64,000 nucleotides of DNA from an uncultured delta proteobacterium (GCA_963727445.1 CAVSGI010000013.1:17316-81315), one strand, 5' to 3'; shown: positions 13,596-55,097, counted from the stretch's first letter. Notes: generated by a model not told the origin, from the sequence alone. A program made the numbers and translations.

Positions 13596-13609
13596 CGTCA
13601 AAGCGTGCG

Positions 13610-14797: not shown

Positions 14798-14905
14798 GTC
14801 CCGTGGGGACCATGACGCGCGCGCAATGGCTCATCTACACGTGAGCCGTTCGACACGGCTGGGGGTCCTCATGCACATGTCAGGGAACGTCGGTCGCGAG
14901 GGGGG

Positions 14906-16905: not shown

Positions 16906-16935
16906 ATCGGTGCCCGACGGGCGCCGCGATGATCG

Positions 16936-18039: not shown

Positions 18040-18084
18040 CTGCGGTTTTGTCGCGGTTTCTCATCCGTGCTGGCCTTGGAGGCA

Positions 18085-18125
18085 GTCGCCCCGCGCCGAC
18101 CCGGTCACGATCTCCCCCCGCCGCG
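18085..18125. repeat. Inverted copy of the transposon-flanking repeat (right end)
   Basis: Reverse-complement match to the 16488/16511 repeat units. Confidence 0.6.
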
Positions 18126-18138
18126 TCGCGCCTGTTGA

Positions 18139-26510: not shown

Positions 26511-26661
26511 GGCGGGGCACTATACACGCTCCGCCGCCGCTTGGCTGGCTGGGCTCGTGGGGCCTTCGGCGAGGGGACGGAACAACTCACATCCTCCAGT
26601 TGTCGGGCACTTACGCGCCTTTCCGAAACGGTTTAGGCTCCGAGCCCCGAAAGTGCGAAAC

Positions 26662-38633: not shown

Positions 38634-41282
38634 ATGCAAAGGAGTGATATCTCGGGTCATTCCGCTTTTTTGACCCCTTCCGAGAGCGTCCCCTATGGTC
38701 TGTCGGGACCAACGCCTTTGGCCTCGCAGAGCACCACATCCCCTGGAGAAATTGCCGCCCCCGAGGGCCGCCGGCACGAGGTGCTGGGGATCCTGAGCGG
38801 CGCCGCCACCATCCTGGTGGGGCTGGCCTTGTGGTCTTACGACGCCCGGGGCACCGAGAACTGGATCGGGCCGGTGGGCAGCGGCCTGGCCGGGGTGATC
38901 GTCGCTGCCTTCGGCGTCGCCGCCTGGGTGATCCCGGTCGAGCTCGGCCTGGCGACCGTCCGTCTCTTCAGCCGGGGCCGCACCATCCTGGGCCTCGCCA
39001 CCGTCGCCTCGACGCTGGTGATCGTGCTGGTGGGTTGCGCGATGCTCCACCTCTTCCTCGAAGGGCAGACCGTCTATGGGGGCCACCTCGCGGGAGGAAT
39101 CCTGGGCGAAGTGCTGGGCGAGGTGCTGCGCTCGCTCCTCGGGCTGGCGGGGGCCTACGTGGTCGGCGTCGCCATCCTGCTCGTGACCTTCGTGCTCCGG
39201 ACGCCGGTGTCGCTCACCGAGGTGGCGCTCCGCGGGGCTGCGGGGACGCGGGCCTTTGCCGACAAGACCATCGAAGGGGCGCGGGCGCTCTGGGACGCAT
39301 GGCGCGAGGCGAAGGAGCTCGAGCGCGCCGAACGCGAGGCGAACGCGCCGAAGATCATCGCCGACGACGAGGACGAAGAGGAGTACGACGAGGGGTACGA
39401 AGAGGAAGACGGCGAGGCGATCTTCGTCGGGGACGAGGCGGAGTCGACGCTGATCGAGGCGCCGGCGAAGACGAAGAAGCGAAAGAAGAAGAGCGCCAAG
39501 GCGGAGCCTGCGGCCGAGGAAGAAGAAGAAGAGGACGAGGACGAGGACGAGGGCCAGGACGAGGACGCGGCCACGTCCGCGAAGGCCGCGAAGTCCGCGA
39601 AGAAGGCGCGCAAGAAGAAGGGCGACGATGGGCCTCGGATCGTCGCGCCGGTGGACAAGCCCCGTCCCGCGGCGGCTGAGCCGAAGTCGATCGAGGACGA
39701 AGCGGTGATGGTGCCGAGCCTGGACCGCCCCTTCGTGCTGCCGCCGACGACGCTGCTCGACGCGCCGCCGCCGCAGGACGACGTGCGCATCGACTCGGAC
39801 ACGCTGCGCGAAAACGCCGCGCGGCTGGTGGAGAAGCTCGAGGCCTATGGCGTGAAGGGCCGGGTCGACGAGATCCACCCTGGTCCGGTGGTCACGATGT
39901 ACGAGTTCGAGCCGCAGAGCGGGACCAAGATCTCCAAGATCGCGGGGCTGGCCGACGACCTGGCGATGGCGCTGGCCGCCCACAAGGTCCGCATCGTGGC
40001 GCCGATCCCGGGCAAGGCGCGGGTCGGCTTCGAGCTGCCGAACGAGCACGCGTCAGACGGTGCATCCTGCGCGAGATCCTCGAGGACGATCGCTGGGACA
40101 AGTTCCAGAAGGCGCACCTGCCGATGGCCCTCGGCAAGGACATCGCGGGTCAGCCGGTCTACGGCGACCTGGCGAAGATGCCGCACCTGCTGGTGGCGGG
40201 CGCGACCGGCGCCGGCAAGAGCGTCGGCCTCAACGTGATGCTCGGCGTCGCTCCTCGCGAAGCGGACGCCCGAGGAGTGCGGCTGCTGATGATCGACCCG
40301 AAGGTGGTCGAGCTCGCGGTCTTCGACGGCATCCCGCACATGCTGCTGCCGGTCGTCACCGACATGAAGAAGGCGGCGCTCGCGCTGCGCTGGGCGGTGG
40401 ACGAGATGGAGCGCCGCTACCAGCTCTTCGCCGACGCAGGGGCGCGCAACATCACCAGCTACAACCAACGCGTGCGAGAAGGTGCTCGACGGCGAGATGC
40501 GCGCCGGAGAAGCTCTGCAGCGGAGCCGCGTCGGCAAGGTGCAGCGCGCAGGGGACGAACGGCGAGGAGGTGCTCCTCGATCCGACCGACGGCGAAGCGC
40601 CGGACGCCGTCGATCCGAACCCCGACAAGCTGCCCTTACGTGGTGGTGGTGGTCGACGAGTTCGCGGACCTGATGATGGTCGCGGCGAAGGACGTCGAGG
40701 CGGCGATCGCGCGCCTCGCCCAGAAGGCGCGCGCGGCGGGCATCCACGTGATCCTGGCGACGCAGCGCCCGAGCGTCGACGTCATCACCGGCATGATCAA
40801 GGCGAACTTCCCGGCGCGCATCGCCTTCAAGGTCTCCAGCGCGAGGACAGCAAGACCATCCTCGGGCGCAACGGCGCCGAGCACCTGCTCGGGATGGGCG
40901 ACATGCTCATGATTCCCGCCGGGCTCGAGCGATCTGAAGCGCGTGCACAGCGCGTTCATCAGCGAGGACGAGGTCCGCAAGGTCTGCGACTTCCTGCGCG
41001 AGCAGGGGCAGCCGGTCTACGACGACGGACATCCTCAAGCCGCGCGATGACGACGACGCCGCACTGCCCGGCGGCCAGAAGAGCGACGACCCGCTCTACG
41101 ACAAGGCCGTCGCCGTGCGTGGCGCAGGCGGGCTACTGCTCGATCAGCCACATCCAGCGCCAGCTCTCGTCGGCTACAACAAGGCCGCCAAGCTCGTCGA
41201 GCGCATGGAGAAGGAGGGCGTCGTCGGGCCGCCCACCAGCAAGGCCGGCGGGCGCCGCGAAGTGTTGATTCAGCCGATCTGA
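38634..41282 (+). pseudogene. ftsK: DNA translocase FtsK/SpoIIIE disrupted by about 8-10 frameshifts
   Basis: N-terminal TM region and acidic linker are intact (38634-~40040). Motor-domain pieces are scattered over all three frames: '[58 protein letters not shown]', '[19 protein letters not shown]', '[68 protein letters not shown]', '[26 protein letters not shown]', 'LKRVHSAFISEDEVRKVCDFLREQGQPVYDDG', 'PLYDKAVAV..AQAGYCSISHIQRQLS', 'VGYNKAAKLVERMEKEGVVGPP...REVLIQPI*'. Confidence 0.7.
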
Positions 41283-41292
41283 ATCGGGCGCT

Positions 41293-42573
41293 CTACCAGC
41301 GGCACGAGCCGCTGCTGCAGTGTTGACCGATGTAGCAGCCGTGTCCGCAGCTCCCGCAGTTGCTCCAGCTCGAGCTCAGGTCCGCACAGTATCGCCCGCG
41401 GTATCGGCTCGTACACTCGGTCTCACCCGGGGCGCATGCGCAGGAACCGTCGATGCAATCGTAGGTCCCGCCGCAGCGCAGCTCGCAACCACCGCAGTTG
41501 TAGCGGTTGGTGTTCGTGTCGACGCAAGACCCGGAGCAGAGGGTCCTGTCGCCGCAGTCGACGGTGCAGGAGCCGTCGAGGCAGACCTGCATCATGGACA
41601 TGTCGCACGCGTTGCCGCACGAGCCGCAATGGCTGGCGTCGGCGAGAGGATCGATGCAAGCGCCGTCACAGAACATCTCCCCCGCATTGCACTGACACGA
41701 CCCGCCCACGCAGGTCTGCCCCCCCGTGCACGCGACACCGCACGAGCCACAGTTCGCGTCGTCGGTCATGGTGTCGACGCAGCTGGACCCGCACGCGGTC
41801 GACCCCATCGGACAGTCGAGCATGCACGTCCCCGTGCTGCACAGCTCCCCCGTCCCGCATGGCGTTCCGCAGTCGCCGCAGTGGGCGGCGCTGCTCTGGA
41901 TGTCGACGCATCCATCCGGCGCGCACTCCACCATGTCACCGGGACAGACGCAGGTGCCGAGGTTGCACTCCTGACCCGATGGACATGCGTTGTCGCACGA
42001 CCCGCAGTGCGCGGCGTTCGTCTGAAGATCCACACAGGAGCCGCTGCAATTGTCGAGGCCGGTGCTGCACTCCGCCGTGCAGCTGCCGCTGGCGCAGACC
42101 TCGGTCGCCATGCATTCGACGCGGCACGCGCCACAGTGGTTCGGGTTCGACGAAAGGGCCACGCACGCGCCGGCGCACTCGGCGAGGCCGGGCGGGCAGA
42201 CGCAGGCTCCGTCGGAGCAGCTCTGGTCCGAGCGACAGGCCTGGCGGCAGGCGCCGCAGTTGGCGCTGTCACTGCTCACGTCCACGCACTCGCCCTCGCC
42301 GCAGACGGTGAGGCTGGCGGAGCAGCCGACGGCGCAGAGACCGAGATCGCACACCTCCCCGGTCGAGCACTCGACGCCGCAACTTCCGCAGTTCTGGCGA
42401 TTGGTGCGGGTGTTGACGCAGACGCCGTCGCAAGAGGTCTGGCCCGCGGCGCAGCCCGAAGTGCCGCCGTCCGGGCTAGTCGAGCTCGGCGCGAGCGCGC
42501 TCTTGTCGACGCTGCAGCCGATGGCGGCCCAGATCAGCGCGGAAACTGCGAGGGAACGAAGAAAGCGAGGCAC
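41293..42573 (-). CDS. Lipoprotein made of about 10 tandem myxobacterial Cys-rich repeats
   Basis: Lipobox MPRFLRSLAVSALIWAAIGCS. Repeating 'C..G.CV(D/N).{2,4}(D/N)..(N/H)CG(A/S)CG..C' units throughout. Confidence 0.75.
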   Translation of the reverse strand: MPRFLRSLAVSALIWAAIGCSVDKSALAPSSTSPDGGTSGCAAGQTSCDGVCVNTRTNRQNCGSCGVECSTGEVCDLGLCAVGCSASLTVCGEGECVDVSSDSANCGACRQACRSDQSCSDGACVCPPGLAECAGACVALSSNPNHCGACRVECMATEVCASGSCTAECSTGLDNCSGSCVDLQTNAAHCGSCDNACPSGQECNLGTCVCPGDMVECAPDGCVDIQSSAAHCGDCGTPCGTGELCSTGTCMLDCPMGSTACGSSCVDTMTDDANCGSCGVACTGGQTCVGGSCQCNAGEMFCDGACIDPLADASHCGSCGNACDMSMMQVCLDGSCTVDCGDRTLCSGSCVDTNTNRYNCGGCELRCGGTYDCIDGSCACAPGETECTSRYRGRYCADLSSSWSNCGSCGHGCYIGQHCSSGSCRW

Positions 42574-42630
42574 TCATTGTGATTGTAGCGCAGATCAACG
42601 GTTGAACATCGGCCCGCCCTCGGGCGTCCT

Positions 42631-43404
42631 ATGCCCGTGCGTGTGCTGATCGCTCTCCTTCTCCTCCTTTGTCCTACATCTGCCTACGCCCAGGCCGACG
42701 AGGCGACCCTCACGGAAACCCGCGGGATCGAGACGCGGGTCGCGCGCGAGGTGGCTTGCATCGCGGAGAAACGCGAGGAGCTGTCGCGCATCGTCCGCCA
42801 GATGGAGGAGGCGCAGGCGCAGATGCGCAGCGGCCGTACCGAGCAAACGCGCGAAGCGGGGCGCCTCGCGCTCGAGTCGCTCACCCAGCGCGCGGTGCGC
42901 GTGGAGCGCACCATCCCCGAGTGCCGGAGCGAGCTGAGCGCGCGCGCGCGACGCCCCGGTCCGCCGGAAGGCGTCACCACCCGCACCGCTCCCCTCGCCC
43001 CCAGTGAAGCGGCCGTCGCCGAGCCCAACGAAGCGACGCGCGTCATCGAACGAAACGCCGTGCTCCAGCCGAACGTCGCGGTCGTCGTGGGCGAACAGGT
43101 GGACGGCACGGGACAGGTGGCCGCCGAAGAGGTCCGCGCTGCCGTTCGCGGCGCGGCTGCAAACTTCAGCCGCTGTTACGACCACCTCGTCGATCGGGGC
43201 GCGTTGACGCGCGGCCAGATCATCGTGACCTTCCGTGTCACCAGCTCGGGGCGCACCATCGGCGCACGCGCACACAACGGCACGATCGACGATCGGCGGT
43301 TCGTGAGCTGCATGTCCTCGGCCGCGCGCCGCATCCGCGTCCGAAGCCGCCCGAACGGGGGCGACGCCGTGTACAGCTATACGTTGCGCTTCCCCGGCCG
43401 CTGA
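42631..43404 (+). CDS. Secreted protein with a coiled-coil N-terminus and an AgmX/PglI-like (TonB-C-like) C-terminal domain
   Basis: Signal peptide MPVRVLIALLLLLCPTSAYAQA. C-terminus 'FSRCYDHLVDRGALTRGQIIVTFRVTSSGRTIGARAHNGTIDDRRFVSCMSSAARRIRV' is recalled as typical of myxobacterial AgmX/PglI C-terminal domains. Confidence 0.45.
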   Translation: MPVRVLIALLLLLCPTSAYAQADEATLTETRGIETRVAREVACIAEKREELSRIVRQMEEAQAQMRSGRTEQTREAGRLALESLTQRAVRVERTIPECRSELSARARRPGPPEGVTTRTAPLAPSEAAVAEPNEATRVIERNAVLQPNVAVVVGEQVDGTGQVAAEEVRAAVRGAAANFSRCYDHLVDRGALTRGQIIVTFRVTSSGRTIGARAHNGTIDDRRFVSCMSSAARRIRVRSRPNGGDAVYSYTLRFPGR

Positions 43405-43421
43405 TCCACTGTCCGCGACGC

Positions 43422-44743
43422 ATGCTGTCGCGCGACGAGATCCTGCACCTCGATCGGCGCCACGTCTGGCGTCCGTACACCTCGGCCGAGGATCACACCG
43501 AGCGCGACCCGTTCGTCGTCGTCGGGGCGGAGGGTCGCCTTCCTCGAGGACGCGGATGGGCGGCGCTACATCGACGCGAACAGCTCGTGGTGGGTGATGA
43601 ACCTCGGTCACCGCCACCCGCGTCTGGTCGCGCGGCTCAAGGCACAGGCCGATCGACTCTGTCACTGCGCCATGGGGACCATGACCAATCCGGAGGCCGT
43701 GCAGCTCGCGGCGGAGCTGGCTCAGGTGGCGCCCGAGGGCCTCGATCGCGTCTTCTTCAGCGACGACGGCTCCACCTCGGTCGAGGTCGCGCTGAAGATG
43801 GCGTTCCAATACTGGCGCCAGAACGATCGTCCCGAGCGGGTGCGCTTCGTCTCGCTGGCCGGCGCCTATCATGGCGACACCGTGGGTGTGATGAGCGTCG
43901 GCGACCTCGAGGCGTTCGCCGGCGTGTACCGACCGCTCTGCTTCGAGGTCTTCCGCGCGCCGCCCCTCGACGAAGAGGGCGGTTGGGATCGCGTCATCGC
44001 CGGCATCGAGAAGCTCCTCGCCGAGAGAAGCGACGAGATCGCGGGCGTGGTGGTCGAGCCGATCCTCCAGGGAGCCGCGGGGATGCGTGTGTGGGCGCCG
44101 GAGCTCCTCTCGCGCCTTCGCGAGGCCACACGGAAGGCGGACACGTTCCTCATCGCCGACGAGGTCTTCACCGGCTACGGGCGCACGGGGACGATGTGGG
44201 CCTGCGATCACGCCGGCATGCCCCGGACCTCTTGTGCGTGGCGAAGGGCTTTTCGGGCGGCGTCCTCCCCTTCGCGGCGACCCTGGCCACGCCGCGGATC
44301 TTCGATGGCTTTCGGGGCGGGGCGCGGGGCGCGCTTTGATGCATGGTCACACCTTCTGCGGCCATCCACTGGGCGCGGCTGTCGCGAGGGAAGTCCTCGC
44401 GATCTACCGCGAAGAGAAGATCCTCGAGCGGATGCGCACCGGAAGCGCGGCGATCTCGGAGGCGTTCCTCGCCATGGGCGAGATCGAAGGGACGTCACGC
44501 CCCCGCGCGCTCGGGATGATGGGCGCCATCGAGGTCGGGCCCCCCGGATATCACGGCGACATCGGCTGGCGCGTCTTCGAGGCGGCGCGACGGCGCGGCG
44601 TGTACCTCCGCCCGATCGGCAACACGGTGTACGTCGTGCCCCCGCTGAACGTCAATCAGCCCGTACTTTCGAATCTTCTCGACGCCGTCCGGGAGTCGGT
44701 CGCCGAGGCGCTCGGCGGTGCTCGACACGGCGGGGCTCCATGA
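43422..44743 (+). pseudogene. bioA: Adenosylmethionine-8-amino-7-oxononanoate aminotransferase (BioA) with about 4 frameshifts
   Basis: Fragments over three frames: 'HVWRPYTSAEDHTERDPFVVVGAEG' | 'VAFLEDADGRRYIDANSSWWVMNLGHRHPRLVARLKAQADRL...SDDGSTSVEVALKMAFQYW...VVEPILQGAAGMRVW...FLIADEVFTGYGRTGTMWACDHAGM' | 'PDLLCVAKGFSGGVLPFAATLATPRIF' | 'MHGHTFCGHPLGAAVAREVL...YLRPIGNTVYVVPPLNVNQ'. Class-III PLP aminotransferase signature. Confidence 0.7.
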
Positions 44744-45137
44744 TAGGCTCGCCTTCGTGGCGAAGCGCGTCCCGCTGATCCTCATCGTCGAGGACGACAC
44801 GGAGCTGTTGAAGATGCTCGGGCGGATGCTCTCGGAGCTCGCCGAGGTCGAGCTCGCGCGGGATGGCATGGAGGCCGTGGAGAAGCTGCGCACGGGCATC
44901 AACCCCGACCTGGTCATCACGGATCTGATGATGCCGCGCATGGACGGCCTCACCCTCGCCAAGCAGCTGAAGCAGGAGCCGCAGACCAAGAAGACGCCGG
45001 TCATCATGCTCACCGCGAAGAATGGCGCGCGAGACGTGGTCGCGGGAATCAACGCAGGGGCCCGCAGTTACATCACCAAGCCCTTCAAACACGAAGAGCT
45101 GTTGAGCAAAGTGCGCAGCGTCCTGAACCTCGAGTAG
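44718..45137 (+). CDS. Single-domain response regulator (CheY-like receiver)
   Basis: 'LILIVEDD', 'DLVITDLMMPRMDG', 'PVIMLTAKNG', 'SYITKPF'. Alternative GTG start at 44758 would avoid the overlap with bioA. Confidence 0.8.
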   Translation: MLDTAGLHDRLAFVAKRVPLILIVEDDTELLKMLGRMLSELAEVELARDGMEAVEKLRTGINPDLVITDLMMPRMDGLTLAKQLKQEPQTKKTPVIMLTAKNGARDVVAGINAGARSYITKPFKHEELLSKVRSVLNLE

Positions 45138-45157
45138 AACCTCGACCTGGGCATCCG

Positions 45158-46792
45158 GTGGGCTCGAGCGCCAAGAAGAGCAAGAAGTCGGGGAAGAAGA
45201 AGAAGGGCAAGCAGGCCGAAGCGCCCGCGGCCGAGGCGGTCTCCGCTTCTGCCCCCGCGATCTACAAGCCCCTCGGGTTGGCGATCTTCTCCGCCGTCAT
45301 CTCCTTTCTCGCCTTCCCGGGCTTCGACGTCTGGCCGCTGGCCTTCGTCTGTCTGGTGCCGCTCTTCTTCGCCCTCGACTGGACGCCGCGGCTCACGAAC
45401 AAGCAGGCGATCGTCTGCTCCATCGCGTTCGGCTTCACCGGTATGTGGGGCGGCTATTACTGGGTCGTCACCATGCTGCAGGACTTCAGCGGCTTTCCGC
45501 TGATCGTCTGCATCCTCTTCGCGAGCCTGTTGAACCTCGCGCAGGGCGGAATGCTCGCGCTCATGGCCTGGCTCTACTGGCGGCTTCGCGGGCGAGGCTG
45601 GTGGCCGATCCTCGCCGCCCCGGCGGCGCATGCGGCGAGCGAGCTCGTCTACCCGATGCTCTTCCCGTACTACTACGCGAACCACCTGCACGACCTGCCG
45701 ATCTTCATTCAGATCGCAGACCTGGGCGGACCGCTGCTGGTGACCGCTTTCGTCTCGGCCTTCAACGTCGGCATCTATCTGGTCCTGCGCTCGCTGGTGA
45801 AGAAGACGCCGATGCCGCGCGTCCAGCTGATGATCGCGGCAGGCGCGACGCTCTTCACCGTCGGTTACGGCGCGTATCGCATCCACGAGGTGGACGCGCG
45901 CGCGGCCGAGGCGCCGGCCATCACCATCGGGATGCCCCAGGTGTCGATGGGCATCTTCGAGAAGCGCGAGGACCCGTGGCGTGGGCTCGAGATGCACATC
46001 GAGATGAGCCGCGAGCTCGAGCGCGACGTGCACCCCGATCTGCTCGTGTGGCCGGAGTCGGCGTACACCTTCTTCCTGCCCGACGGCGCCACCAACGTGA
46101 AGGACATGGTGATGGGCCCGGTGCATACGCCGCTCCTCTTCGGCGGGCTGCAGCGGCGCCTCGTGGACGGTGTCGAGAAGCACTACAACACCGCGTTCAT
46201 CCTCGACGGCGACGGCGACATCGAGGGCACCTACGACAAGACCTACCTCCTCGCTTTCGGCGAATACCTGCCGCTCGGCGAGGAGTTCCCCATCTTCTAC
46301 GAGTGGTCGCCGCACAGCGGGCACTTCACGCCCGGCAATCACGTTCGGCCGCTGCCCTTCCGCGACTATCGGATCACCACGATGGTCTGTTACGAGGACA
46401 TCATCCCCGGCTTCGTTCGCCACGCGGTGAACGAGGCGAACCCGCACCTGTTGGTGAACATCACCAACGACGCGTGGTTCGGTGACACGACGGAGCCCTG
46501 GGAGCATCTCGCGCTGGCGAAGTTCCGCGCCGTCGAGCACCACCGCTACTTCGTGCGCAGCACCAACAGCGGCGTGAGCGCGATCATCGACCCCGTGGGC
46601 CGCGTGCTCGGCCACACCGGCGTCTTCACCGAGGAGACGCTGAGCGGCGAGGTGAAGATGATGACGAGCACCACGCTTTTCGAGTACCTCGGCAACTGGC
46701 CGGGTTGGCTCGGCCTCGCCGTGTGCATCTTCTGCGGCTGGATTCGGCGGCGTGAGCCGGCAGCTCAGGCGGGCGCGAGCTCAAAAGCCTGA
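45158..46792 (+). CDS. lnt: Apolipoprotein N-acyltransferase
   Basis: Multi-TM N-terminus followed by a CN-hydrolase domain ('LLVWPESA', 'YDKTYLLAFGEYLP', 'MVCYEDI' Glu-Lys-Cys triad context). Unusual Lys-rich N-terminal tail MGSSAKKSKKSGKKKKGKQ. Confidence 0.8.
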   Translation: MGSSAKKSKKSGKKKKGKQAEAPAAEAVSASAPAIYKPLGLAIFSAVISFLAFPGFDVWPLAFVCLVPLFFALDWTPRLTNKQAIVCSIAFGFTGMWGGYYWVVTMLQDFSGFPLIVCILFASLLNLAQGGMLALMAWLYWRLRGRGWWPILAAPAAHAASELVYPMLFPYYYANHLHDLPIFIQIADLGGPLLVTAFVSAFNVGIYLVLRSLVKKTPMPRVQLMIAAGATLFTVGYGAYRIHEVDARAAEAPAITIGMPQVSMGIFEKREDPWRGLEMHIEMSRELERDVHPDLLVWPESAYTFFLPDGATNVKDMVMGPVHTPLLFGGLQRRLVDGVEKHYNTAFILDGDGDIEGTYDKTYLLAFGEYLPLGEEFPIFYEWSPHSGHFTPGNHVRPLPFRDYRITTMVCYEDIIPGFVRHAVNEANPHLLVNITNDAWFGDTTEPWEHLALAKFRAVEHHRYFVRSTNSGVSAIIDPVGRVLGHTGVFTEETLSGEVKMMTSTTLFEYLGNWPGWLGLAVCIFCGWIRRREPAAQAGASSKA

Positions 46793-47297
46793 TTCGTCCG
46801 CTTCTTTCGGGGGGGCGACGATGGTGAGGGTGAACCCGCCGTCGAAGAACGAGTCGTGTCCCCGCCTCGGGGTGAGGAGCGGTGTGATGCAGACGAAGGC
46901 GTCGACGCTCGGAGTCGGCACCATCTCGATCTGGCTGACCGACGCGCTCTGCGGGCCGCTCTCCAGGCGCGCCTTCAGGCGGTAGGTCCCGTCTTCACCG
47001 CCGCGGCTCGTCCAGCAGGACTCGAACTCGGCGCGGCCGTCGGCGAGGGCCTCCTCGAGGATCTCGGATCTCGCCGACGTAGGGGAGCGGCGACATCGTG
47101 AGGCGGAACCGGGGCTCGGGCGGTGGAGGCGGCGAGGGCGGGAGGTGCGGCGCTTCGCGGACGGCCGGTGTGTTTTCGTCCTCGTCTCCACGACCCGCGA
47201 TGGAGACGATGAGCGCGCCGAGCAGGATCGTGCCCGCGAGAGCAGCGACGATCGGGCCCAGCATTCCGGGTGCCCGGTGCACGTCCTCCTCCGCCAT
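46781..47297 (-). CDS. Small membrane protein broken by a 7-bp tandem duplication near 47060
   Basis: MAEEDVHRAPGMLGPIVAALAGTILLGALIVSIAG (TM) ... SPLPYVGEI | frame switch at 'gagatccgagatcctcgaggag' | LEEALADGRAEFESCWTSRGGEDGTYRLKARLESGPQSASVSQIEMVPTPSVDAFVCITPLLTPRRGHDSFFDGGFTLTIVAPPKEADESGF*. Removing one 'gagatcc' copy restores a single frame. Confidence 0.45.
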
Positions 47298-47330
47298 GGC
47301 TCAGAGCATGCCACAGCCGCGAGGCGTCGC

Positions 47331-48866
47331 TCAGGATCTGCGCGCGTAGCGGAGTTGGCGGCGCGTCGAAGGCGTGGTGGCGAGCTGCACCAGCGGGAAG
47401 CGCTGGCGATGCGCCGGGTGCTCGCGGGTGTCCCCGGAGCGCGCCGTCGGTCCGTCCTCTTCGTGGGGGACGCGTAAGCCGATCGCCGCCACACGCCCGC
47501 GGATGAAGTTGAGGAGGTTGATGTGGCCGCGCCGCACCTTCGAGGTGTCCCCCGAGGGAGTGAGATCGCGGCCGCGGTAGCCGACGGGCGGGCCGCCCCA
47601 GTAGCTCTCGCTGCGGATCTGCCCCGCGGGACACGCGGGCAGCTCGTGCCAGATGCGGTGGAGGATCGCGTAGCGGGTCTGGAAGGCGTTCTGCCCGGCG
47701 TCGCTCGTGACCCCCTCGGGGAGGCGCGCGTTCTGGTCGGGCATGCCGCGACCGCCGACGATCCCCGAGGCGGGCCGAAGCATGATGTCCTCGCCCAGGC
47801 TGCTCTCGTCGTAGCGGTAGTGGAGCCGGGTGAGGGTGAGCTGCGCCGGGTAGACGCGGCGAGGCAGGACGTCGCCGCCCAGGGTGAGGACGTCTTGTTC
47901 GGAGAGGGTGGGCCCCGGGCAGGGGTCGCAGCTGCCGGCCGTCCACGCGTACTCGGTGACGATGGCCCCTGGATTGCGGCGGGAGAGCTCGTCGAAGACC
48001 GCGGCATAGACCTCGCCGAAGCGCCCCTTCGCGCGGCCGCGGACGTGCAGGTTGGTCGGCGCGAGGACGTTCGGGTAGTTCGCCGCCTCGAAGCGCGTCT
48101 CGCCGAGGACGTGGATGAGCAGGTCTTGTGCGCCGCCGCTGTTGATCAGACCCAGACGAACCGGAAGCGCGAACTGGTTCGAGTCGTAGTGGATGCGGAG
48201 CGGCGAGAGACGGGCGACGCCGTGATCGAAGTGGACGCGGTCGACGTCCACCTTGGCGACGAAGAAGCGGTGGCCGCTCTCGATGTAGGGCCTGAGCAGC
48301 TCCGAAGCGCCGCTGGGGATGTTGTAGTGATTGTCGACGAGCCAGGTCTCGAGGGCGGAGGAGTCGGAGGCGTCGAGGACGACGACGTCGTACTCGCCCA
48401 CCTGGAACTGTGCGGTGATGCGGACCGCGCTGCCGCCGCCACCGCGACCCGTACCGCGAAGAGCGTAGCCGACTGAACCGAATCCCATGCCCCCGTAGCC
48501 TCGGCCGTAGCCACCGTACGGCCTGTAGCACTCGCCGGGATGCTCCCAGTACTCGACGAGGCGCGGCGCGGCGAGGTTCTCGATTTTCTCGAAGACCTCG
48601 GCGGAGAGCGTGCGCACGTTCTCGCGCTCGATCGCCTGCGGCACCGGCACCACCATCGCGAAGTCCTCGGCAGGCCCCTGATAGTCGTTGCGCATCGACA
48701 AGACCGTGCGCGTCCCCTGCCGCATCATCACCACGCTCGTCGCCGGGTTCTTCAGCTCCTCCTCCCCCGGCTTCACGTAAAACCCACAGAACGCCGCAGC
48801 TGTCCCCGCAGACGCGAGGCAGTAAATCGCCGCGGCGCAACCCATCACGGCACGCGCCATCGTCAT
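47331..48866 (-). CDS. Secreted DUF2330-like protein; C-terminal ~60 aa uncertain
   Basis: Signal peptide MTMARAVMGCAAAIYCLASAGTAAA then 'FCGFYV'. Gly/Tyr-rich 'YGGYGRGYGGMGFG' and DUF2330-like blocks. The tail (...RRQLRYARRS) looks like shadow. The small TM ORF at 46781-47297 follows in the same frame 33 nt after its stop. Confidence 0.5.
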   Translation of the reverse strand: MTMARAVMGCAAAIYCLASAGTAAAFCGFYVKPGEEELKNPATSVVMMRQGTRTVLSMRNDYQGPAEDFAMVVPVPQAIERENVRTLSAEVFEKIENLAAPRLVEYWEHPGECYRPYGGYGRGYGGMGFGSVGYALRGTGRGGGGSAVRITAQFQVGEYDVVVLDASDSSALETWLVDNHYNIPSGASELLRPYIESGHRFFVAKVDVDRVHFDHGVARLSPLRIHYDSNQFALPVRLGLINSGGAQDLLIHVLGETRFEAANYPNVLAPTNLHVRGRAKGRFGEVYAAVFDELSRRNPGAIVTEYAWTAGSCDPCPGPTLSEQDVLTLGGDVLPRRVYPAQLTLTRLHYRYDESSLGEDIMLRPASGIVGGRGMPDQNARLPEGVTSDAGQNAFQTRYAILHRIWHELPACPAGQIRSESYWGGPPVGYRGRDLTPSGDTSKVRRGHINLLNFIRGRVAAIGLRVPHEEDGPTARSGDTREHPAHRQRFPLVQLATTPSTRRQLRYARRS

Positions 48867-48916
48867 GCCGGTTTAGACCCCCATCAGCCCCCCAAGTTCC
48901 CAACGGGGACGGTCTA

Positions 48917-49093
48917 CACTTTTCAACTTTTGCCCCAAACCAGACGATGGGGACGGTCTACACTTTTCAACTTTTGCCCCAAACCAGACGAGGCGGGCAA
49001 AGTTGAAAAGTGTAGACCGTCCCCGTTAGAGGCGGGCAAAAGTTGAAAAGTGTAGACCGTCCCCGTTAGAGGCGGGCGGGGAGGAGGAGGGTG
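48917..49093. repeat. Four-copy 43-bp repeat: two direct copies then two inverted copies (perfect long palindrome) with an AT-rich core
   Basis: Direct 'aacggggacggtctacacttttcaacttttgccccaaaccagacga' x2 (48925-49010), then 'gcgggcaaa(a)gttgaaaagtgtagaccgtccccgttagag' x2 (49012-49090), which is the reverse complement of the core. The core contains TTGAAA-N17-TTAGAG-like hexamers. It lies between the 49066 gene stop and the DUF2330 start. Confidence 0.85.
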
Positions 49094-50778
49094 AAGGTGC
49101 CGTCGGCGGCGACGACGGTGCGGCCGACGGCGACGTTGCGCTCGGTTCCGTCGTCTTCGGTGATCATCGCGAAGGCGCGGATCTCGGCACCCGGATGGGC
49201 CGAGAGGGTGCCGGTGACGGGGATCGGAGCGGTGACCTCGAAGACGTCGCTGTAGCTGGTGCCGGAGCCCATGGCGCCCGAGCCCACGACGAAGCTGGGC
49301 CGAACCACCCAGGGGAAGTTGCTCTCGGGCGGCGGCTTGATGAAGAGGTCGTAGACGCCCACGTCGAGGGGGATGTTGAACTGGCCGGTCGGGTCGGTGG
49401 TCGTCTGGCCAGTGCGGTTGAAGCGCGCCGCCGGCAGCTCCTCGAGCGCCCGGCCGAGGGCGGTGGCCGTGACGGCGGCGTCGCGCATCAGGCGGCTGTC
49501 GCCCGTGCGGACGATGCCGCCCACCGCGGCGCGCTCCGGAAGCTGAAAGAGCTGGCCCTGGATGCACTCGCGCGCAGGATCGGCGTTGATCATGAAGGCG
49601 GACTCGTGGAGCACGCCGTAGCGCGACACGTCGTGATCAGCGGGAGGCGTCACCAGCACGTCGTAGGAGCCAGGCAGGAGCATCGCCTCGAAGGTACCGT
49701 CGGCCTGCGCGGTGAGGGTGGTCTCGAAAGTCCCGGAGAGCCCGGTCTCGGGGTCGAGCACCTCGTCGGTGGTGAAGGTGATCGTCGCGCTTTCGGCGAC
49801 CTCGCCCGTGCTCCCGAGCTCGACGCTCCCGCGATAGCAGACCGGCCGAATCATCGGGACGAGGATCCGAACGAAGCCGTCGGGGTCCGCCACCAGGTAG
49901 TCGGGGTTTGCGAAGATGGTCGGGCTGGTCGTGTCCTCGCCAGTACCGATTCGGATCAGGTAGCTCTCGGTGTTGGGCAAGAGGTCGAGGGTGAACTGCC
50001 CCATGGTGCCCTCGTCGGCGGAGGTCACGACGGTGGAGGACACCCGCCGGCCCGTCTCCGCGTCCACCGCCCAGACCGTCCGGCCCGGCGCGGGGAGCTC
50101 CATGCTGTTGATCACCAGGCCGTGAAGCTGCTCGAAGGTCTCGGGATAGTTGATCGCGATCGACGCATAATCGCCGCCGCCCGGGACGGGTCGCCCGAGA
50201 ATGCGGAGCGGCGGCACCCGGCTCGCCCAATCGCCGACGGGCGTCACGGTGATGTCGTACTCACGGTCGGGCACGAGCTCCGTCTGAAAGTCCGCCTCGG
50301 TTCCTTCGACCGCGTAGGGCATCGCCGACGTCGTCGTCTCGACCTCGATGCGGCGAGCGCCGGGAAAGGCGCCCGGACGCGAGAACTTGAGGTTGGCGCT
50401 GACCGGCCCTTCCTCACCGGGGACGCGCACGGTCCCGATGACGGTGATGGAAGGGGGCAGGGGGAGCTCGCCCAGGTCCGTCGCGCCGCTCACGTCGTAG
50501 GGGCCGAGGCTGTGCGTCGCATTCGCGATCGCGCCCGCCGCAGCGGGGGGCGTCACCTCGAGCCCGATGTGCAGGGTCTCGGTGTCCGAGGTGACGCACA
50601 TGCCCAGGTCGACGGCACACACCGCGCCGGTGCAATCGGAATCCGACGAGCACCGGTTCTCGATGGGCGTCTCGCTGGCGAGCGACAGCCCACAGCCCGA
50701 GAGCGCCAGAAGCGCGAGCATGCCGAGAGCACATCTCGGGAATGCGACCGAGCATCGCGCAGCGCGGCCCCGCGTCAT
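49066..50778 (-). CDS. Large hypothetical lipoprotein with β-rich / Ig-like repeats
   Basis: Internal start at 50778 (MTRGRAARCSVAFPRCALGMLALLALSGCGLS lipobox). The upstream part of the ORF is shadow. β-strand-rich T/V/G composition. The start overlaps the stop of the next gene as ATGA. Confidence 0.55.
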   Translation of the reverse strand: MTRGRAARCSVAFPRCALGMLALLALSGCGLSLASETPIENRCSSDSDCTGAVCAVDLGMCVTSDTETLHIGLEVTPPAAAGAIANATHSLGPYDVSGATDLGELPLPPSITVIGTVRVPGEEGPVSANLKFSRPGAFPGARRIEVETTTSAMPYAVEGTEADFQTELVPDREYDITVTPVGDWASRVPPLRILGRPVPGGGDYASIAINYPETFEQLHGLVINSMELPAPGRTVWAVDAETGRRVSSTVVTSADEGTMGQFTLDLLPNTESYLIRIGTGEDTTSPTIFANPDYLVADPDGFVRILVPMIRPVCYRGSVELGSTGEVAESATITFTTDEVLDPETGLSGTFETTLTAQADGTFEAMLLPGSYDVLVTPPADHDVSRYGVLHESAFMINADPARECIQGQLFQLPERAAVGGIVRTGDSRLMRDAAVTATALGRALEELPAARFNRTGQTTTDPTGQFNIPLDVGVYDLFIKPPPESNFPWVVRPSFVVGSGAMGSGTSYSDVFEVTAPIPVTGTLSAHPGAEIRAFAMITEDDGTERNVAVGRTVVAADGTFTLLLPARL

Positions 50779-51299
50779 TGGCACGACACCATCTCCACGC
50801 CCGCGGCGCTGGGGTCGCTCGAGTCGAAGGCCGCAATCCACCAGGTCGCGGTGCCCAGGTCCTCGGAGTCCTCGGGCTGGTCCGTTCCGAACTGGAACGC
50901 GCTGCTCACCCGCAGCTCGAGGGGGTAGCAACGCCCAGCGACCAGATTGTTGAGGCCGCTGAACTCGAAGGAGTAGGGGTTGCGCTGCTCGGGGGCGATG
51001 GTGCCGGCGTCGAGCGTTCGTTCGGTGGGAGACTTCTGCAGCACCACGTAGCGGAACAGCTCCTGGTCCTCGTTGCAGTCCCGGATCTCCACCTCGAAGG
51101 TCAGGTCGCGGACCCCGCTGCCCGCGTCGCCCGACGGGTCCTCCGCGAGGTCGACCTTGATGACGCTTCCCAGCGGCCGCGGTGCCGCTTCGAGTGTGGC
51201 CGTCTCCACCGAGGGGGGGCAGAACGGCTCTTGGGGGAAGTCTTTCTTGGTCACCAAACAGCCCGTCAACAAGCAGCATGCGGCGACGACCGCGCGCAT
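50775..51299 (-). CDS. Small lipoprotein
   Basis: Internal start MRAVVAACCLLTGCLVTKKDF at 51299. 174 aa. Confidence 0.5.
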   Translation of the reverse strand: MRAVVAACCLLTGCLVTKKDFPQEPFCPPSVETATLEAAPRPLGSVIKVDLAEDPSGDAGSGVRDLTFEVEIRDCNEDQELFRYVVLQKSPTERTLDAGTIAPEQRNPYSFEFSGLNNLVAGRCYPLELRVSSAFQFGTDQPEDSEDLGTATWWIAAFDSSDPSAAGVEMVSCQ

Positions 51300-51501
51300 G
51301 GACCAGGGCAAAGCAAGGCGCGCGCCACCCCCGTCAGGATGGGAAATTTCCAGGAGATCGCGGGGGAGGAGTGACATGTGCCTGGGGCAGAATGCCCGGA
51401 TCCACGACATCGATGTCAGTCCCGGGCTCGGACGCCCACGAGGGGGCGTGGAGAAACAATTGTAGTACGTCCAACGCTGGCGAGCCGACAAACCGTGCTA
51501 G

Positions 51502-53325
51502 CTAGCCCCCAGGATCCGGGGCGTCCGGCTCCCGTTCGAGGTACCGGAAGATGGTTCGTGGATCGACGCCCAGGTCCCGGGCGGTCTTGGTGCGGTTGCC
51601 GTTGTTCCGCTCGAGCACCTCGAGGATGTAGCGGCGCTGGAAGTCTTCGCGGGCCTCGGCCAGGGGCACCACCGCCTTGAGGGCCTCGGGGAAGAGGTCG
51701 AGGTCCTCGGGCCCGACGAGCGTCTTGTCGCAGAGCACGATCGCCTTCTTGATGCGGTTCTCGAGCTGCCGGATGTTGCCGGGCCAGTCGTACTTGCGCA
51801 TCGCATGAAGCGCGCCGGGCGTGAAGCCCTTCACCTTCGAACCGAACTCCTCGGCGTACTTGTGGAGGAAGAACTTGGCGATGACCATCATGTCGTCGCC
51901 GCGCTCGCGCAGCGGCGGCAGGTGCAGGTTGACCACGTTGAGGCGGTAGTAGAGGTCCTCGCGGAAGTTCTGCTTCTTGATCTCCTCTTCGAGGTCGCGG
52001 TTGGTCGCGGCGACGACGCGGATGTCCACCGGCTCGGACTTGGTGTCGCCGACCTTCATCACCACCTTCTCCTGCAGCGCGCGCAAGAGCTTCACCTGGA
52101 GCGCCACCGGCATCTCGCCGATCTCGTCGAGGAAGAGGGTGCCACCGTCGGCCGCCTGGAACTTGCCCTCCCGGGTGGCCACCGCGCCGGTGAACGCGCC
52201 GCGCACGTGCCCGAAGAGCTCCGACTCCATCAGGTTCTCGGGGATGGCGCCGCAGTTGACCACCACGAAGGGCCCGTCTTTGCGCTGCGAGCGGTTGTGG
52301 ATCTCGCGGGCGATCAGCTCCTTGCCGGTGCCCGTCTCGCCGGTGATCAACACGCTGATGTCGGTGCCCGCGACCTTCTCGAGCTTCTTGAAGACCTCGA
52401 GCAGCGCCGGGCAGGCTGCCGATGATGTCGCCGAAGCGCTTCTCGCCCATCAGCGCTCGCGAGCTCGTCGCGATCGCTCTTGAGCTCGTCGAGGAGAAGC
52501 GCGTTCTGGAGGATCAGCGCGCCCTGGGTCGGCGAAGATCGTGAGCACGTCGAGGCTCGACTGCTCGAAGAGGCTACGCACGTTGTCGTTGCCGACGTAG
52601 ATGCATGCCGAGCAGCTGCCCCTGCGCCATCAGCGGCGCGCACATCACCTAGCAGAGCTGCAGGTTCATCACGCTCTCGGAGCCCTTGAACATGGAGTCG
52701 TGCAGGGCATCGCTGACGATCAGCGGCTTCTTGGATTCGACGACGCGCGCGATGATGCTGTCCGACAGGTGCCGGACGCCGTCGGGCAGGTCCTTCTGCT
52801 CGACGTTGCGCGCCACCGTCACCTTGCGGCTCGCCGTTCTCGAGGAGGATCACGAAGCCCTTGTGGGCGAGGTCACGTCGATGACCGCGTCCACCAGCGC
52901 CGTTGAGCTGCTCCTGCACGCTCGACAGGCCATCAGGCGCTCGCTGAACTCGTGCCAGCTTCCGCATGCCCGCCAGCTCCGCCTCCGGGCTCGCCTCCCC
53001 CGGCTCCTCGTCGTCGCCGACGGTCGCCGCCTCGTCGAAGATCGAGAAGACCAGCTCGATCTCCTCGCCGATGAGGATCCGATCGCCATGGAAGATCTTC
53101 CCCCGCCGCTTCTTCTTGCCGTTGATCTGGAGCTCGCCACCCTTCTCGATCTCCGAGAGGCTGAAGTCCTTCCCGTCGAAGACGATCTGCGCGTGGTAGT
53201 CGGCGAAGGCTCTTCGAATCGATCGCGACGTCGTTGCCGCCGCCACGGCCGATCGACGTGATCTTCTTGAAAATCGGGAAGACGTGGGGACGCCCCTCGG
53301 GGACGATCCACTTCAGGCTGGGCAT
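51502..53325 (-). pseudogene. FHA-domain σ54-dependent transcriptional activator with at least 3 frameshifts
   Basis: FHA 'MPSLKWIVPEGRPHVFPIFKKITSIGRGGGNDVAI' | 'FADYHAQIVFDGKDFSLSEIEKGGELQINGKKKRRGKIFHGDRILIG'. AAA+ 'MGEKRFGDIIGS' | (one extra G in cccggcgc) | 'VLITGETGTGKELIAREIH...GAFTGA...ESELFGH' with GAFTGA. C-terminal HTH 'RTKTARDLGVDPRTIFRYL'. Confidence 0.7.
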
Positions 53326-53356
53326 TCGAGCGGGAGCATACCAGAGTTGATAAGCT

Positions 53357-54080
53357 GTGATTGTGTGCCGCTCGGGCCGATGGATCGCTAGCTCTCTCAT
53401 CGCGCTCTGCCTCGCCGCTGGCTGCCGAACGGGCTTCCCCAGCGCCGCGCATGGGGACAGAGACGCCGCGCGCGATTCGGGCCCGCCCGACGCGCCCGAG
53501 TCGTTTGACGCCGGAGCCACCGCCGACGCAGGGGCCGACGCCGACTCGGCAGCGGGCGCCTTCGACTCGAGCCTCGACGCCCTGGACGGCGACGCCCTGG
53601 ACGCCCCACGCCCTGGACGCCGCCGATGCCCTGGACGCCGCCGATGTTCTGGACGCCGCCGACGCGCTGGATGCCGCCGACGCGGGCGACGCGGGCTGCG
53701 TCATGGCCTACCTCGACATGGACGGGGACGGCTACGGGGCCGGCCCCGCCATTCGCCCCTGCCCCACCGGCTCGGGCTTCTCGGAGCTCAACGGCGACTG
53801 CGACGACACGGACGCCCGCGCCTTCCCCGGTCAGGCCTTGTATTTCCCGACCCCGCTGGCGGGAGGCGGCTTCGACTACGACTGCAACGGCTACGACCAG
53901 GCGCAGTACCGGCTGGAGTTCCAGTGCGCGAGCGCCATCACCGAGTGCATCCTCCTCCGCGAGGGCTTCTACATGCCCGTCCCGGGCTGCGGCGTCACCG
54001 GCAGGCTCGCCCTTTCGTGCGTCGTCGTCGGCGACGGTTGCGGCACGATGGACGTCTACACCGCCCAACCCTGCCACTGA
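53357..54080 (+). CDS. Lipoprotein with (LDAAD)n repeats and a MopE-like Cys metal-binding motif; frameshift inside the repeat
   Basis: Frame 1: MIVCRSGRWIASSLIALCLAAGCRTG...SSLDALDGDALDA. Frame 2: LDAADALDAADVLDAADALDAADAGDAGCVMAYLDMDGDGYGAGPAIRPCPTGSGFSELNGDCDDTDARAFPGQ...FDYDCNGYDQAQ...TAQPCH*. The switch falls within a 15-bp tandem repeat (~53595). Confidence 0.55.
53575..53695. repeat. 15-bp tandem repeat (ctggacgccgccgat-type) encoding LDAAD
   Basis: gccctggacgccgccgatgccctggacgccgccgatgttctggacgccgccgacgcgctggatgccgccgacgcg. Confidence 0.7.
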
Positions 54081-54089
54081 AGACGCGCG

Positions 54090-55097
54090 TCAGGAGCCTG
54101 CCGCGCTGACGGTCAGCGTGATGGTGTCCGTCGGCGTCGTGGTCGAGTAGGGGGAGACCACGATGTAATAGGTCGAGAACGCAGACGCGGTGAAGGTCAC
54201 CTCGGAGTCGAGCCCACCGGTGGTCGGGGAGTCGTCGTTGCAAGCGACCTCGTAACTCGAAGAGCAGAGCGAGCTGTCGTAGACCGCGAGCACCGTGTCT
54301 GCGCCGGATGAGCCCGCCGCGGTGACGGTCACGCTGCCCGAGGAGAACGCCGTGTAGGCGAAGGCGACGTCCGGCCGGGCCGAGGTGGCTCCGCAGCTGA
54401 AGGGCGTGTGGTCGGCGACGTGACCGCTGAAGGTGAAGGAAGCCGAGGTCGAGATGGAGGTCGCGCTGGAGCAGCTCTCGCCCGCGGTGGTCGGCGGAGG
54501 CGGAGGCGGCGCCTCGCACAGCCCCGACACGCACATCTCGCCGGAGCCGCAGCTACCGCACGATCCGCCGCATCCGTCGGCGCCGCACTCGACGCCGCTG
54601 CAGGCGGGGACACAGGTGGAGACGCACGCACCGGAGCGGCAGGCCTCGCCGGTGCCGCAGGTGTTGTAGCAGTCGCCGCAGTGGCTGCTGTTGGTCGAGG
54701 TGTCGACGCAGGAGTCGCCGCACATGGTGCGGGGCGAGGGGCAGGTCGGGCCCTCCATGATGCACTCGCCCGCATCGCAGTACGCGCCCGTCCCGCAGGC
54801 GTTGCCGCACGCGCCGCAGTTGTAGTCGTCATAGTCGGTGTCGACGCAGCCCCCGTCACAGTCGGTGAAGCCGCTCTCACAGGAGGGCGGGGGCGGAGGT
54901 TCGGCGTCGGGGACCACCGACGCGTCCTCCTCCGTGCCTCCGTCGGGAGCGACGACGCCTCCATCGTCCATCGGCGGTACGACAGAGCCGTCCGAGGGGC
55001 CGCGCGGATTGCCGATGCCGCGGCTCCGGGCGCCGTTGCAGCCGAGGGCGGTGGCGAGGATGAGGGAGAGGAGGCTGAGGTAGAGGAAGCGGGGCAT
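54090..55097 (-). CDS. Lipoprotein with myxobacterial Cys-rich repeats and a Ser/Thr-rich β C-terminal domain
   Basis: Lipobox MPRFLYLSLLSLILATALGCNG. 'CVDTDYDDYNCGACGNACGTGAYC', 'CVDTSTNSSHCGDCYNTCGTGEAC'. Poly-Pro segments. Confidence 0.7.
   Translation of the reverse strand: MPRFLYLSLLSLILATALGCNGARSRGIGNPRGPSDGSVVPPMDDGGVVAPDGGTEEDASVVPDAEPPPPPSCESGFTDCDGGCVDTDYDDYNCGACGNACGTGAYCDAGECIMEGPTCPSPRTMCGDSCVDTSTNSSHCGDCYNTCGTGEACRSGACVSTCVPACSGVECGADGCGGSCGSCGSGEMCVSGLCEAPPPPPPTTAGESCSSATSISTSASFTFSGHVADHTPFSCGATSARPDVAFAYTAFSSGSVTVTAAGSSGADTVLAVYDSSLCSSSYEVACNDDSPTTGGLDSEVTFTASAFSTYYIVVSPYSTTTPTDTITLTVSAAGS

Follow-up and report, generated by a model that had tools for sequence, protein, structure and literature searches.

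The window (the whole stretch of DNA analysed, 64,000 nucleotides, with positions counted from its first letter) contains ftsK, bioA, a gene for an FHA-GAF-AAA+-HTH sigma-54 activator and two small genes, one for a single-TM protein and one for a lipoprotein (Table 1). All five carry frame breaks in the public deposited sequence. The truncated products are exact database entries, as seen for the FtsK N-terminus (P0001, 534 aa) and the AAA+/HTH part of the activator (P0242, 283 aa), both from one 505,600-bp contig. Breaks were counted with a frameshift-aware protein-to-DNA aligner and with a codon-usage Viterbi procedure. The latter was adopted in place of an HMM based on GC by codon position, which was dropped as too crude, since it scored an intact Cys-rich lipoprotein gene as non-coding. 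Almost all of the indels are single bases and, in alignments of ftsK, bioA and the activator, single-base edits restore full-length conserved ORFs. The first-pass annotation of this DNA had described a cluster of frameshift-disrupted genes; this description holds and was even understated, as ftsK and the activator contain more indels than first claimed.

Table 1 Genes, error blocks and frame breaks in the window. Inserted bases are given in lower case or in square brackets.
Feature	Position	Strand	Details and evidence
Frameshift outside the flagged region	29225-29240	+	At about 29231, GCA[G]GAT; Viterbi junction without nearby stop
ftsK (4TM, alpha, motor, gamma)	38634-41282	+	Clean to 40046; about 14 single-base indels in 40047-41166
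Dense error block 1	40047-41166	+	ftsK motor/gamma part
ftsK one-base insertions	40047 c, 40066 c, 40244 g, 40475 c, ~40500 c, 40545 c, 40633 c, 40915 c, 41024 g, 41118 c	+
ftsK net -1 events	~40278, ~40517, ~40835, ~41164	+
Stig1-like lipoprotein gene	41293-42573		Intact; single 426-aa ORF, 7 Stig1 repeats
AgmX/PglI-tail protein gene	42631-43404		Intact
bioA (class III aminotransferase)	43422-44743	+	3 frame breaks; Pfam Aminotran_3, tblastn, codon-level alignments
bioA breaks	43536, ~44218, ~44328	+	Insertion of c (GGT[c]GCC); 1-nt deletion; 1-nt deletion
Small single-TM protein gene	46781-47297	-	Broken by exact 7-bp tandem duplication; three-frame translation
7-bp tandem duplication	47059-47073		GGATCTC x2.1 on + strand, GAGATCC GAGATCC on coding strand; Tandem Repeats Finder (TRF), 100% match
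Sigma-54 activator (FHA-GAF-AAA+-HTH)	51502-53325	-	Pfam, three-frame translation, alignments to P0243 and to the stitched L001 ortholog
Sigma54_activat, AAA_lid_14, HTH_8	51505-52449	-	Pfam
Dense error block 2	52414-53214	-	Activator FHA/GAF half
Activator insertions	53214, ~52955, 52901, 52826, 52603, 52527, 52451, 52414	-
Activator net -1 events	~52932, ~52870	-
Activator in-frame TAG	52649-52651	-	Ser (TCG) in relatives
Lipoprotein gene	53357-54080	+	ALDAAD array and Cys-rich DGDGYG/CDD tail ("MopE-like"); three-frame translation of the raw sequence
Lipoprotein frame break	about 53598-53606	+	GCC GCC GAC reads GCC CC AC

Distribution of the frame breaks

The damage is spread unevenly over 40-54 kb and comprises two dense blocks, each of about 1 kb, together with a few single events. 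Between the blocks lie intact genes, namely those for the Cys-rich Stig1-like lipoprotein, in which no frameshift was found, the AgmX/PglI-tail protein, a response regulator, Lnt and a DUF2330 protein. A frameshift considered in a CarboxypepD_reg gene at about 50.7 kb was rejected and taken as a gene boundary, because a stop in the upstream frame lies 7 nt from the junction and the layout is identical in L001, a metagenome-assembled genome (MAG) locus described below.

For ftsK, Pfam places FtsK_4TM and FtsK_alpha on the 5' ORF. The motor and gamma parts were matched by codon-level alignment to an intact relative, P0002, in which PF01580 and PF09397 are present. The parts that identify an FtsK/SpoIIIE DNA translocase (4TM, alpha, FtsK_SpoIIIE motor and gamma) are thus found in order. 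Breaks were located by tblastn and by frameshift-aware alignment against P0002; an 862-aa "FtsK ORF" of L001 was discarded as a reference, as it is itself out of frame. Twelve breaks were called automatically and a compensated pair at about 40500/40517 was recognized by eye, giving about 14, where 8-10 frame changes had been proposed, and the codon-usage Viterbi procedure independently gave matching frame changes. The compensating +1/-1 pair, 35 nt apart, that had been noticed before corresponds to the insertion of g at 40244 and the 1-nt deletion at about 40278. In-frame stretches between breaks are 92% identical to P0002. Corrected FtsK can be read through 852 codons without a stop and shares 91.5% identity with the intact P0002 in the motor domain, with no excess of amino-acid change relative to this sister. 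Indeed, corrected FtsK is closer than P0002 to all five outgroups and therefore shows no relaxed selection.

In bioA, tblastn against 12 BioA relatives gave the frame order 3 > 1 > 3 > 2, and codon-level alignments to references P0123 and P0132 were used; the gene is broken, as reported, with three breaks counted rather than about four. The activator, for which at least three breaks had been claimed, carries about 10 indels in its FHA/GAF part plus one in-frame TAG, while its AAA+/HTH part (51502 to about 52400) contains none.

The two small genes, for which no match was found in Pfam or NCBIfam, have one break each, in agreement with the first reading. In the TM protein gene, three-frame translation shows that deleting one copy of the 7-bp duplication restores the frame, such that ...MSPLPYVGEI joins LEEALADGRAEF... 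In the lipoprotein gene, the repeat array, earlier taken as a 15-bp LDAAD repeat, has a unit of 18 nt (ALDAAD), with TRF giving a period of 18, 6.3 copies and 7% indels. Natural slippage had been suggested at both of these breaks. The 7-bp duplication is real and could stem from slippage, but the array break is not of the kind that unit slippage would produce, because it is a 2-nt deficit within one 18-nt unit and no unit was gained or lost.

Outside the flagged region, the break at about 29231 splits a TPR-DUF3857 / Transglut_core-DUF3858 protein, with its Pfam domains distributed over two frames, and represents the same error type in an unrelated gene. Two to three further candidate breaks were seen outside the region, in rough agreement with the three previously listed for the rest of the window.

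Sequence context of the indels

The inserted bases have a distinct context. Among 32 well-flanked 1-nt insertions, only two repeat the preceding wobble base, as compared to an expected 43.5% (P=4e-6), and 22 have no identical neighbour. The most frequent contexts were G[C] (14), C[G] (8) and T[C] (3), so that the inserted base is usually the other G/C choice at the preceding codon third position. As the inserted base so rarely repeats the preceding wobble base and is usually the alternative one, the pattern suggests a consensus of mixed haplotypes in which a synonymous SNP is represented by both of its alleles. At all nine ftsK insertion sites tested, the inserted base is a natural allele of relatives at the wobble position; this is consistent with such an origin but is not proof of it, as the same would be expected at most saturated wobble sites. 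Insertion at codon boundaries was not relied on as a test, as a random insertion looks "clean" 0.74 of the time under the null. The classical homopolymer type of Nanopore error does not describe these data, as most insertions lie outside runs of the same base, which is unusual for low-accuracy sequence.

One could consider that the genes are expressed through programmed recoding, i.e., ribosomal frameshifting, transcriptional slippage or RNA editing, as the amino-acid sequence is conserved between the breaks and the same genes are broken in two related genomes. However, examination of the sequence contexts revealed no slippery heptamer, homopolymer or common motif at the break sites, and Rfam identified no element in 38-56 kb. 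Moreover, a single gene with about 14 sites, placed differently in two close relatives, is incompatible with conserved signals, and in relatives the ORF is plain at 79 other metagenome loci. The probability of recoding is thus close to nil.

Comparison with other metagenome loci

To place the break density in perspective, the same aligner was applied to the FtsK motor of these 79 other metagenome loci, taken irrespective of sequencing platform, and yielded 2 frameshift calls in 30,953 codons, as compared to 10 calls in 405 codons for the window and 13 in 403 for L001. The density in the window is far above chance. L001 belongs to isolate MFD04944.bin.3.210 and its contig bears a name of the contig_NNNNN style. 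We take the MFD prefix to link it to the Microflora Danica project. That project produced its MAGs by assembling Nanopore-only reads with Flye, followed by a single round of Medaka (PMC12313526). In L001, the ftsK motor has about 18 indels and the FHA/GAF part of the activator about six. The same gene blocks are thus damaged as in the window but at different positions, with one position in common against about 0.6 expected by chance, and the errors in the two contigs are therefore independent rather than inherited. The AAA+/HTH block of the activator is clean in both. Conserved genes are fragmented to a comparable extent in a second long-read contig that we examined, L084, a contig of 867 kb from ENA named in the contig_NNNN style, where mutS, the rib operon, RNase E/G and the N-terminus of a sigma-54 activator are all fragmented. 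Truncated BioA fragments are likewise numerous among contigs 0.4-1.4 Mb in length. From the example of L001 and L084, we infer that the contig of the window also comes from a long-read platform and pipeline.

Sequence affinities were also compared. In the 4TM and alpha domains of FtsK, the window and P0002 are clearly sisters. The motor block of the window lies 3-4% nearer to each of the outgroups, such that the affinities of this block differ from those of the rest of the gene. This shift fits what would be expected of a consensus of mixed sequences. Identity between the window and L001 at four-fold sites is 0.72 in the ftsK motor block, against about 0.5, yet the damaged GAF block (0.63) and the clean AAA+ block (0.60) do not differ, and this measure should be considered as not decisive.

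Genuine and recent pseudogenisation of ftsK, bioA and the activator, perhaps redundant with intact paralogs elsewhere, had been proposed as one cause of the breaks, and some of the observations are in its favor. The breaks do stand in the deposited sequence, and the search for second copies was confined to the 64-kb window, where the search gave no second ftsK or bioA but low-complexity noise only. In addition, the in-frame TAG and the 7-bp tandem duplication are naturally occurring mutation types; these two differ from the doubled-SNP type and could be real mutations. Pseudogene clusters that arise in reductive evolution, as in Mycobacterium leprae and recent endosymbionts, similarly interrupt several conserved genes within a short distance. 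Such real pseudogenes, however, lose their codon bias and accumulate substitutions and stops along with indels of various lengths. In the broken genes described here, neither codon-phase composition nor amino-acid conservation is lost, and the gene with the most damage is the essential ftsK. All in-frame stretches have a GC3 of 0.8-1.0, and the TAG of the activator is the only in-frame stop. Neutral decay would leave far more substitutions than indels, while ftsK has accumulated about 14 indels in 1.1 kb with neither a stop nor excess amino-acid change. Furthermore, insertions that mostly have no adjoining identical base are unlike natural slippage, intact genes lie between the broken ones, and the 79 other loci are essentially clean. 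As the blocks in L001 are hit at other positions, an essential gene would have had to decay twice, once in each lineage, with the protein still conserved. Pseudogenisation thus finds no support here and is very improbable.

That the indels are real in the DNA of both this population and L001, lying near wobble positions in genes still under purifying selection, is extremely improbable. It would require an unknown correction step at the level of RNA or translation, or a hidden intact copy.

Probable errors in the assembly consensus

The frameshifts are very probably consensus errors of a contig assembled from a long-read metagenome, rather than marks of decaying genes, as judged from the sequence and its comparisons. 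The indels are almost all single-nucleotide changes in restorable ORFs and are nearly absent from homologous loci that other projects assembled; damage of this kind recurs at unrelated positions in L001 and L084. In the organism itself, a Myxococcota relative of the Sandaracinaceae/Polyangiales, ftsK, bioA and the activator gene are most likely intact. Low-accuracy sequence had also been considered before, and this part of the earlier reading is supported, with the correction that it does not form a single 14-kb stretch but the two blocks and scattered single errors.

Nanopore-only genome and metagenome assemblies contain indel and frameshift errors that are concentrated in homopolymers (Sereika et al. 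2022, PMC9262707). The window resembles such assemblies, for which correctors such as proovframe exist, in that single-base indels break conserved ORFs in long MAG contigs and single-base edits restore the gene. It differs from homopolymer errors in that the insertions come after codon third positions and consist of the alternative G/C base.

As for the technical cause, a mixture of haplotypes is most likely. Metagenome assemblies of the Flye type merge related strain haplotypes into one consensus (Strainberry, PMC8302730). In certain blocks, the reads behind the consensus would have come from at least two diverged haplotypes, which may derive from co-existing strains, from tracts imported by recombination or from reads of related populations recruited to conserved DNA. 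The haplotypes would differ mostly in G/C choices at codon third positions and, at differing sites, the consensus would have kept both bases, giving a 1-nt insertion, or neither, giving a 1-nt deletion, instead of one. The block-wise damage and the shifted affinities of the ftsK motor fit a multi-haplotype consensus of the kind addressed by Strainberry and Strainy. Conversion of SNPs into indels is, however, our own inference and not part of haplotype collapse as described, which also leaves the sparing of the AAA+ block unexplained. Recruitment of foreign reads to conserved DNA likewise fails to account for the AAA+/HTH block, which is just as conserved yet undamaged in both the window and L001.

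The same contig could instead be an ordinary long-read stretch that is locally under-polished or of low coverage, with random platform errors and no mixed haplotypes. Damage dominated by indels is the classic signature of long reads (PMC9262707), scattered frameshifts also occur elsewhere in the window, and a related contig, L003, is labelled 3x and is likewise frameshifted. Nonetheless, platform indels favor homopolymers, unlike the insertions described above, random low coverage would not strike the same sub-gene blocks in two independent contigs, and the phylogenetic affinity is shifted in the motor block. We thus regard this explanation as unlikely.

Taken as consensus errors, the breaks hold no biological interest in themselves and are not evidence of a bacterium losing ftsK, bioA or the activator. 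They should rather be considered as a warning on quality, as public long-read MAGs from soil can hold kilobase blocks with about 1% indels in the most conserved genes. Such non-homopolymer indels raise the number of apparent pseudogenes, disrupt marker genes and give rise to truncated database "proteins", such as P0001 and P0242. Wherever gene loss or pseudogenisation is deduced from contigs of this kind, the reads should be checked first.

Frame breaks in the flagged genes

Judged from the sequence evidence collected here, the broken reading frames at ~40-54 kb are very probably an assembly artefact, not a biological feature. Frame breaks were called with a purpose-written protein-to-DNA aligner that allows frame changes, run against the nearest intact relatives; the ftsK reference was P0002 (829 aa, 81% overall identity). 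Against P0002, ftsK shows 12 frame changes at 40047-41166. The compensating pair noticed in the first-pass annotation was recovered as an insertion at 40244 and a deletion at ~40278, and an additional compensated pair at ~40500/40517 is seen here and also when the DNA is aligned to L001, a syntenic locus from an independent metagenome-assembled genome (MAG). Three frame breaks were found in bioA and ~ten indels in the sigma-54 activator, every one within its FHA/GAF half, the AAA+/HTH half being clean. A codon-usage Viterbi analysis found the same frame changes without any homology input and limited dense frame switching to two ~1 kb blocks. As the truncated products P0001 (FtsK N-terminus) and P0242 (AAA+/HTH part of the activator) are exact public protein entries, both from one 505,600-bp contig, the deposited assembly carries the breaks. 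The broken frames first reported are confirmed.

Features of the window and their coordinates
Feature	Position	Strand	Remark
TPR-DUF3857 / Transglut_core-DUF3858 protein	26479-30352		split by frameshift at 29225-29240
ftsK	38634-41282	+	
Stig1-like Cys-rich lipoprotein	41293-42573	-	426 aa, 7 Stig1 repeats
AgmX/PglI-tail protein	42631-43404	+	
bioA	43422-44743	+	
Response regulator	44718-45137	+	
lnt	45158-46792	+	
Small single-TM protein	46781-47297	-	
DUF2330 protein	47331-48866	-	
GGGGACGGTCTACACTTTTCAACTTTTGCCC array	48905-49064		intergenic
CarboxypepD_reg protein and upstream gene	49066-51491	-	
FHA-GAF-AAA+-HTH sigma-54 activator	51502-53325	-	
Repeat-bearing Cys-rich lipoprotein	53357-54080	+	
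Stig1-like Cys-rich repeat lipoprotein	54090-55097	-	

In the small TM gene, the 7-bp tandem duplication is exact, as first described, and the frame returns once one copy is taken out. Slippage had also been proposed in the LDAAD repeat of the lipoprotein gene; the break there is a 2-nt deficit (GCC GCC GAC to GCC CC AC) within an array of 18-nt ALDAAD units, contrary to unit slippage. The activator GAF domain contains an in-frame TAG at 52649-52651 (-), where L001 (TCG) and the activator relative P0243 have Ser; this is the sole substitution-type disruption found. Both the TAG codon and the duplication differ in type from the other disruptions and could be real.

Outside the flagged region, where three breaks had been suspected, one (~29231) is confirmed: it parts DUF3857 from Transglut_core within a single protein, in a context (GCA[G]GAT) of the doubled-wobble type found in the flagged region. 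Two to three more are candidates only; the Viterbi analysis gives same-strand frame changes with no stop codon nearby at 2474, 6324 and 38555, possibly more single frameshifts or overlapping genes.

The window is G+C-rich (~69%), with a very strong signal at third codon positions, and its closest proteins come from Myxococcota MAGs (Sandaracinaceae, Polyangiales). The region is bracketed by the two intact Stig1-like lipoprotein genes. Upstream of the DUF2330 gene lie four copies of an A+T-richer 31-nt element, GGGGACGGTCTACACTTTTCAACTTTTGCCC, two direct (44-nt spacing) and two inverted (40-nt spacing), which form nested perfect hairpins. No further copies occur elsewhere in the window, the array has no Rfam match and the element is missing from L001. 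The copies might serve as an operator array or a terminator, or they might represent a small mobile insert or an artefact of fold-back during assembly.

Damage in independent assemblies

In the species-representative collection, no genome locus other than L001 (isolate MFD04944.bin.3.210, contig_29597) is close to the window; the two are syntenic at 72-85% DNA identity. The damage in L001 is of the same kind and in the same blocks: ~18 indels affect the motor/gamma part of ftsK and ~6 the FHA/GAF part of the activator, while the AAA+/HTH part is clean. Only one exact coincidence was found among ~14 x 18 ftsK events (~0.6 expected by chance); because the positions differ, the damage was not inherited and arose separately in each assembly. 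Programmed recoding across the breaks is contradicted, as the sites share no motif and differ among close relatives, and other relatives have plain ORFs. We take the MFD prefix to mean Microflora Danica. For Microflora Danica MAGs, only Nanopore reads were used, assembled with Flye and given one Medaka round (PMC12313526).

On L084, another long public contig (867 kb; contig_6244, ENA ERZ25039521), mutS, riboflavin operon genes and RNase E/G at 12800-19500 each lie in several frames and the N-terminus of a sigma-54 activator is likewise fragmented, which shows that such breakage is common in assemblies of this kind. Among the bioA search results were many truncated BioA fragments, located on contigs 0.4-1.4 Mb long. 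A separate observation concerns L003 (ENA ERZ25074695, ctg323691_3x_l), where an AAA+/HTH block at 9447-10855, with 80% identity to window 51507-52386, comes straight after an unrelated, itself frameshifted, DsbD-like gene. The homology begins almost exactly at the start of the window activator's clean block. Either this AAA+ activator naturally stands alone in L003, or the 3x contig contains a chimeric join there.

Error type and probable origin

Error type was assessed on 32 well-flanked 1-nt insertions (17 window, 15 L001) and 11 net -1 events. The inserted base equals the preceding one in 2/32 insertions, where base composition predicts 43.5% (P = 4e-6), and 22/32 have no identical neighbour at all. 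Published Nanopore consensus errors follow homopolymers (PMC9262707), a pattern not seen here; nor is this natural slippage. The most frequent pairs, G[C] (14), C[G] (8) and T[C] (3), are customary synonymous third-position alternatives in a G+C-rich genome. At 9/9 ftsK insertion sites the inserted base is natural at that wobble position among relatives, which is expected at most saturated sites and thus offers consistency, not proof. Several deletions fall at commonly variable sites (Leu CTG/TTG first base, Ser TCN third base, Val/Ile first base).

Most likely, reads from two or more diverged haplotypes went into the consensus of the affected blocks, which would have retained both or neither of the bases where these haplotypes differ. 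Related strains are known to be merged by Flye into a single consensus (PMC8302730). P0002 is clearly the window's sister across the clean 4TM and alpha domains of ftsK, at 92% and 96% identity; within the damaged motor block, P0003, another FtsK relative, is more like P0002 than the window is, and the window is 3-4% closer to every outgroup. Such a shift is what a blend of haplotypes in the consensus would give, although a recombination tract is an alternative. Foreign reads simply drawn to conserved DNA do not suffice as an explanation, as the equally conserved AAA+/HTH block (80-96% DNA identity between window and L001, zero indels) is clean in both and the same sub-gene blocks are damaged. 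The artefact might also be a plain low-coverage or unpolished patch, though this leaves unexplained both the base pattern and the blocks common to window and L001.

Selection on the affected genes

The same aligner gave 10 frameshift calls in 405 codons of the window ftsK motor, against 2 well-flanked calls in 30,953 motor-domain codons from 79 other metagenome FtsK loci. After single-base edits, FtsK has 0 stops in 852 codons and shares 91.5% identity with P0002 in the motor domain. As each of five outgroups is nearer to edited FtsK than to P0002, the window lineage carries no extra amino-acid change. Every in-frame stretch keeps a coding-like codon-position composition, and pseudogenes do not show fourteen neutral indels within 1.1 kb unaccompanied by substitutions or stops. 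Of the two explanations first offered, low-accuracy sequence holds, whereas real pseudogenisation is not supported, being contradicted by this selection signature, by the control loci and by the parallel yet position-independent damage in L001. The flagged genes, among them the normally essential ftsK, are not decaying.
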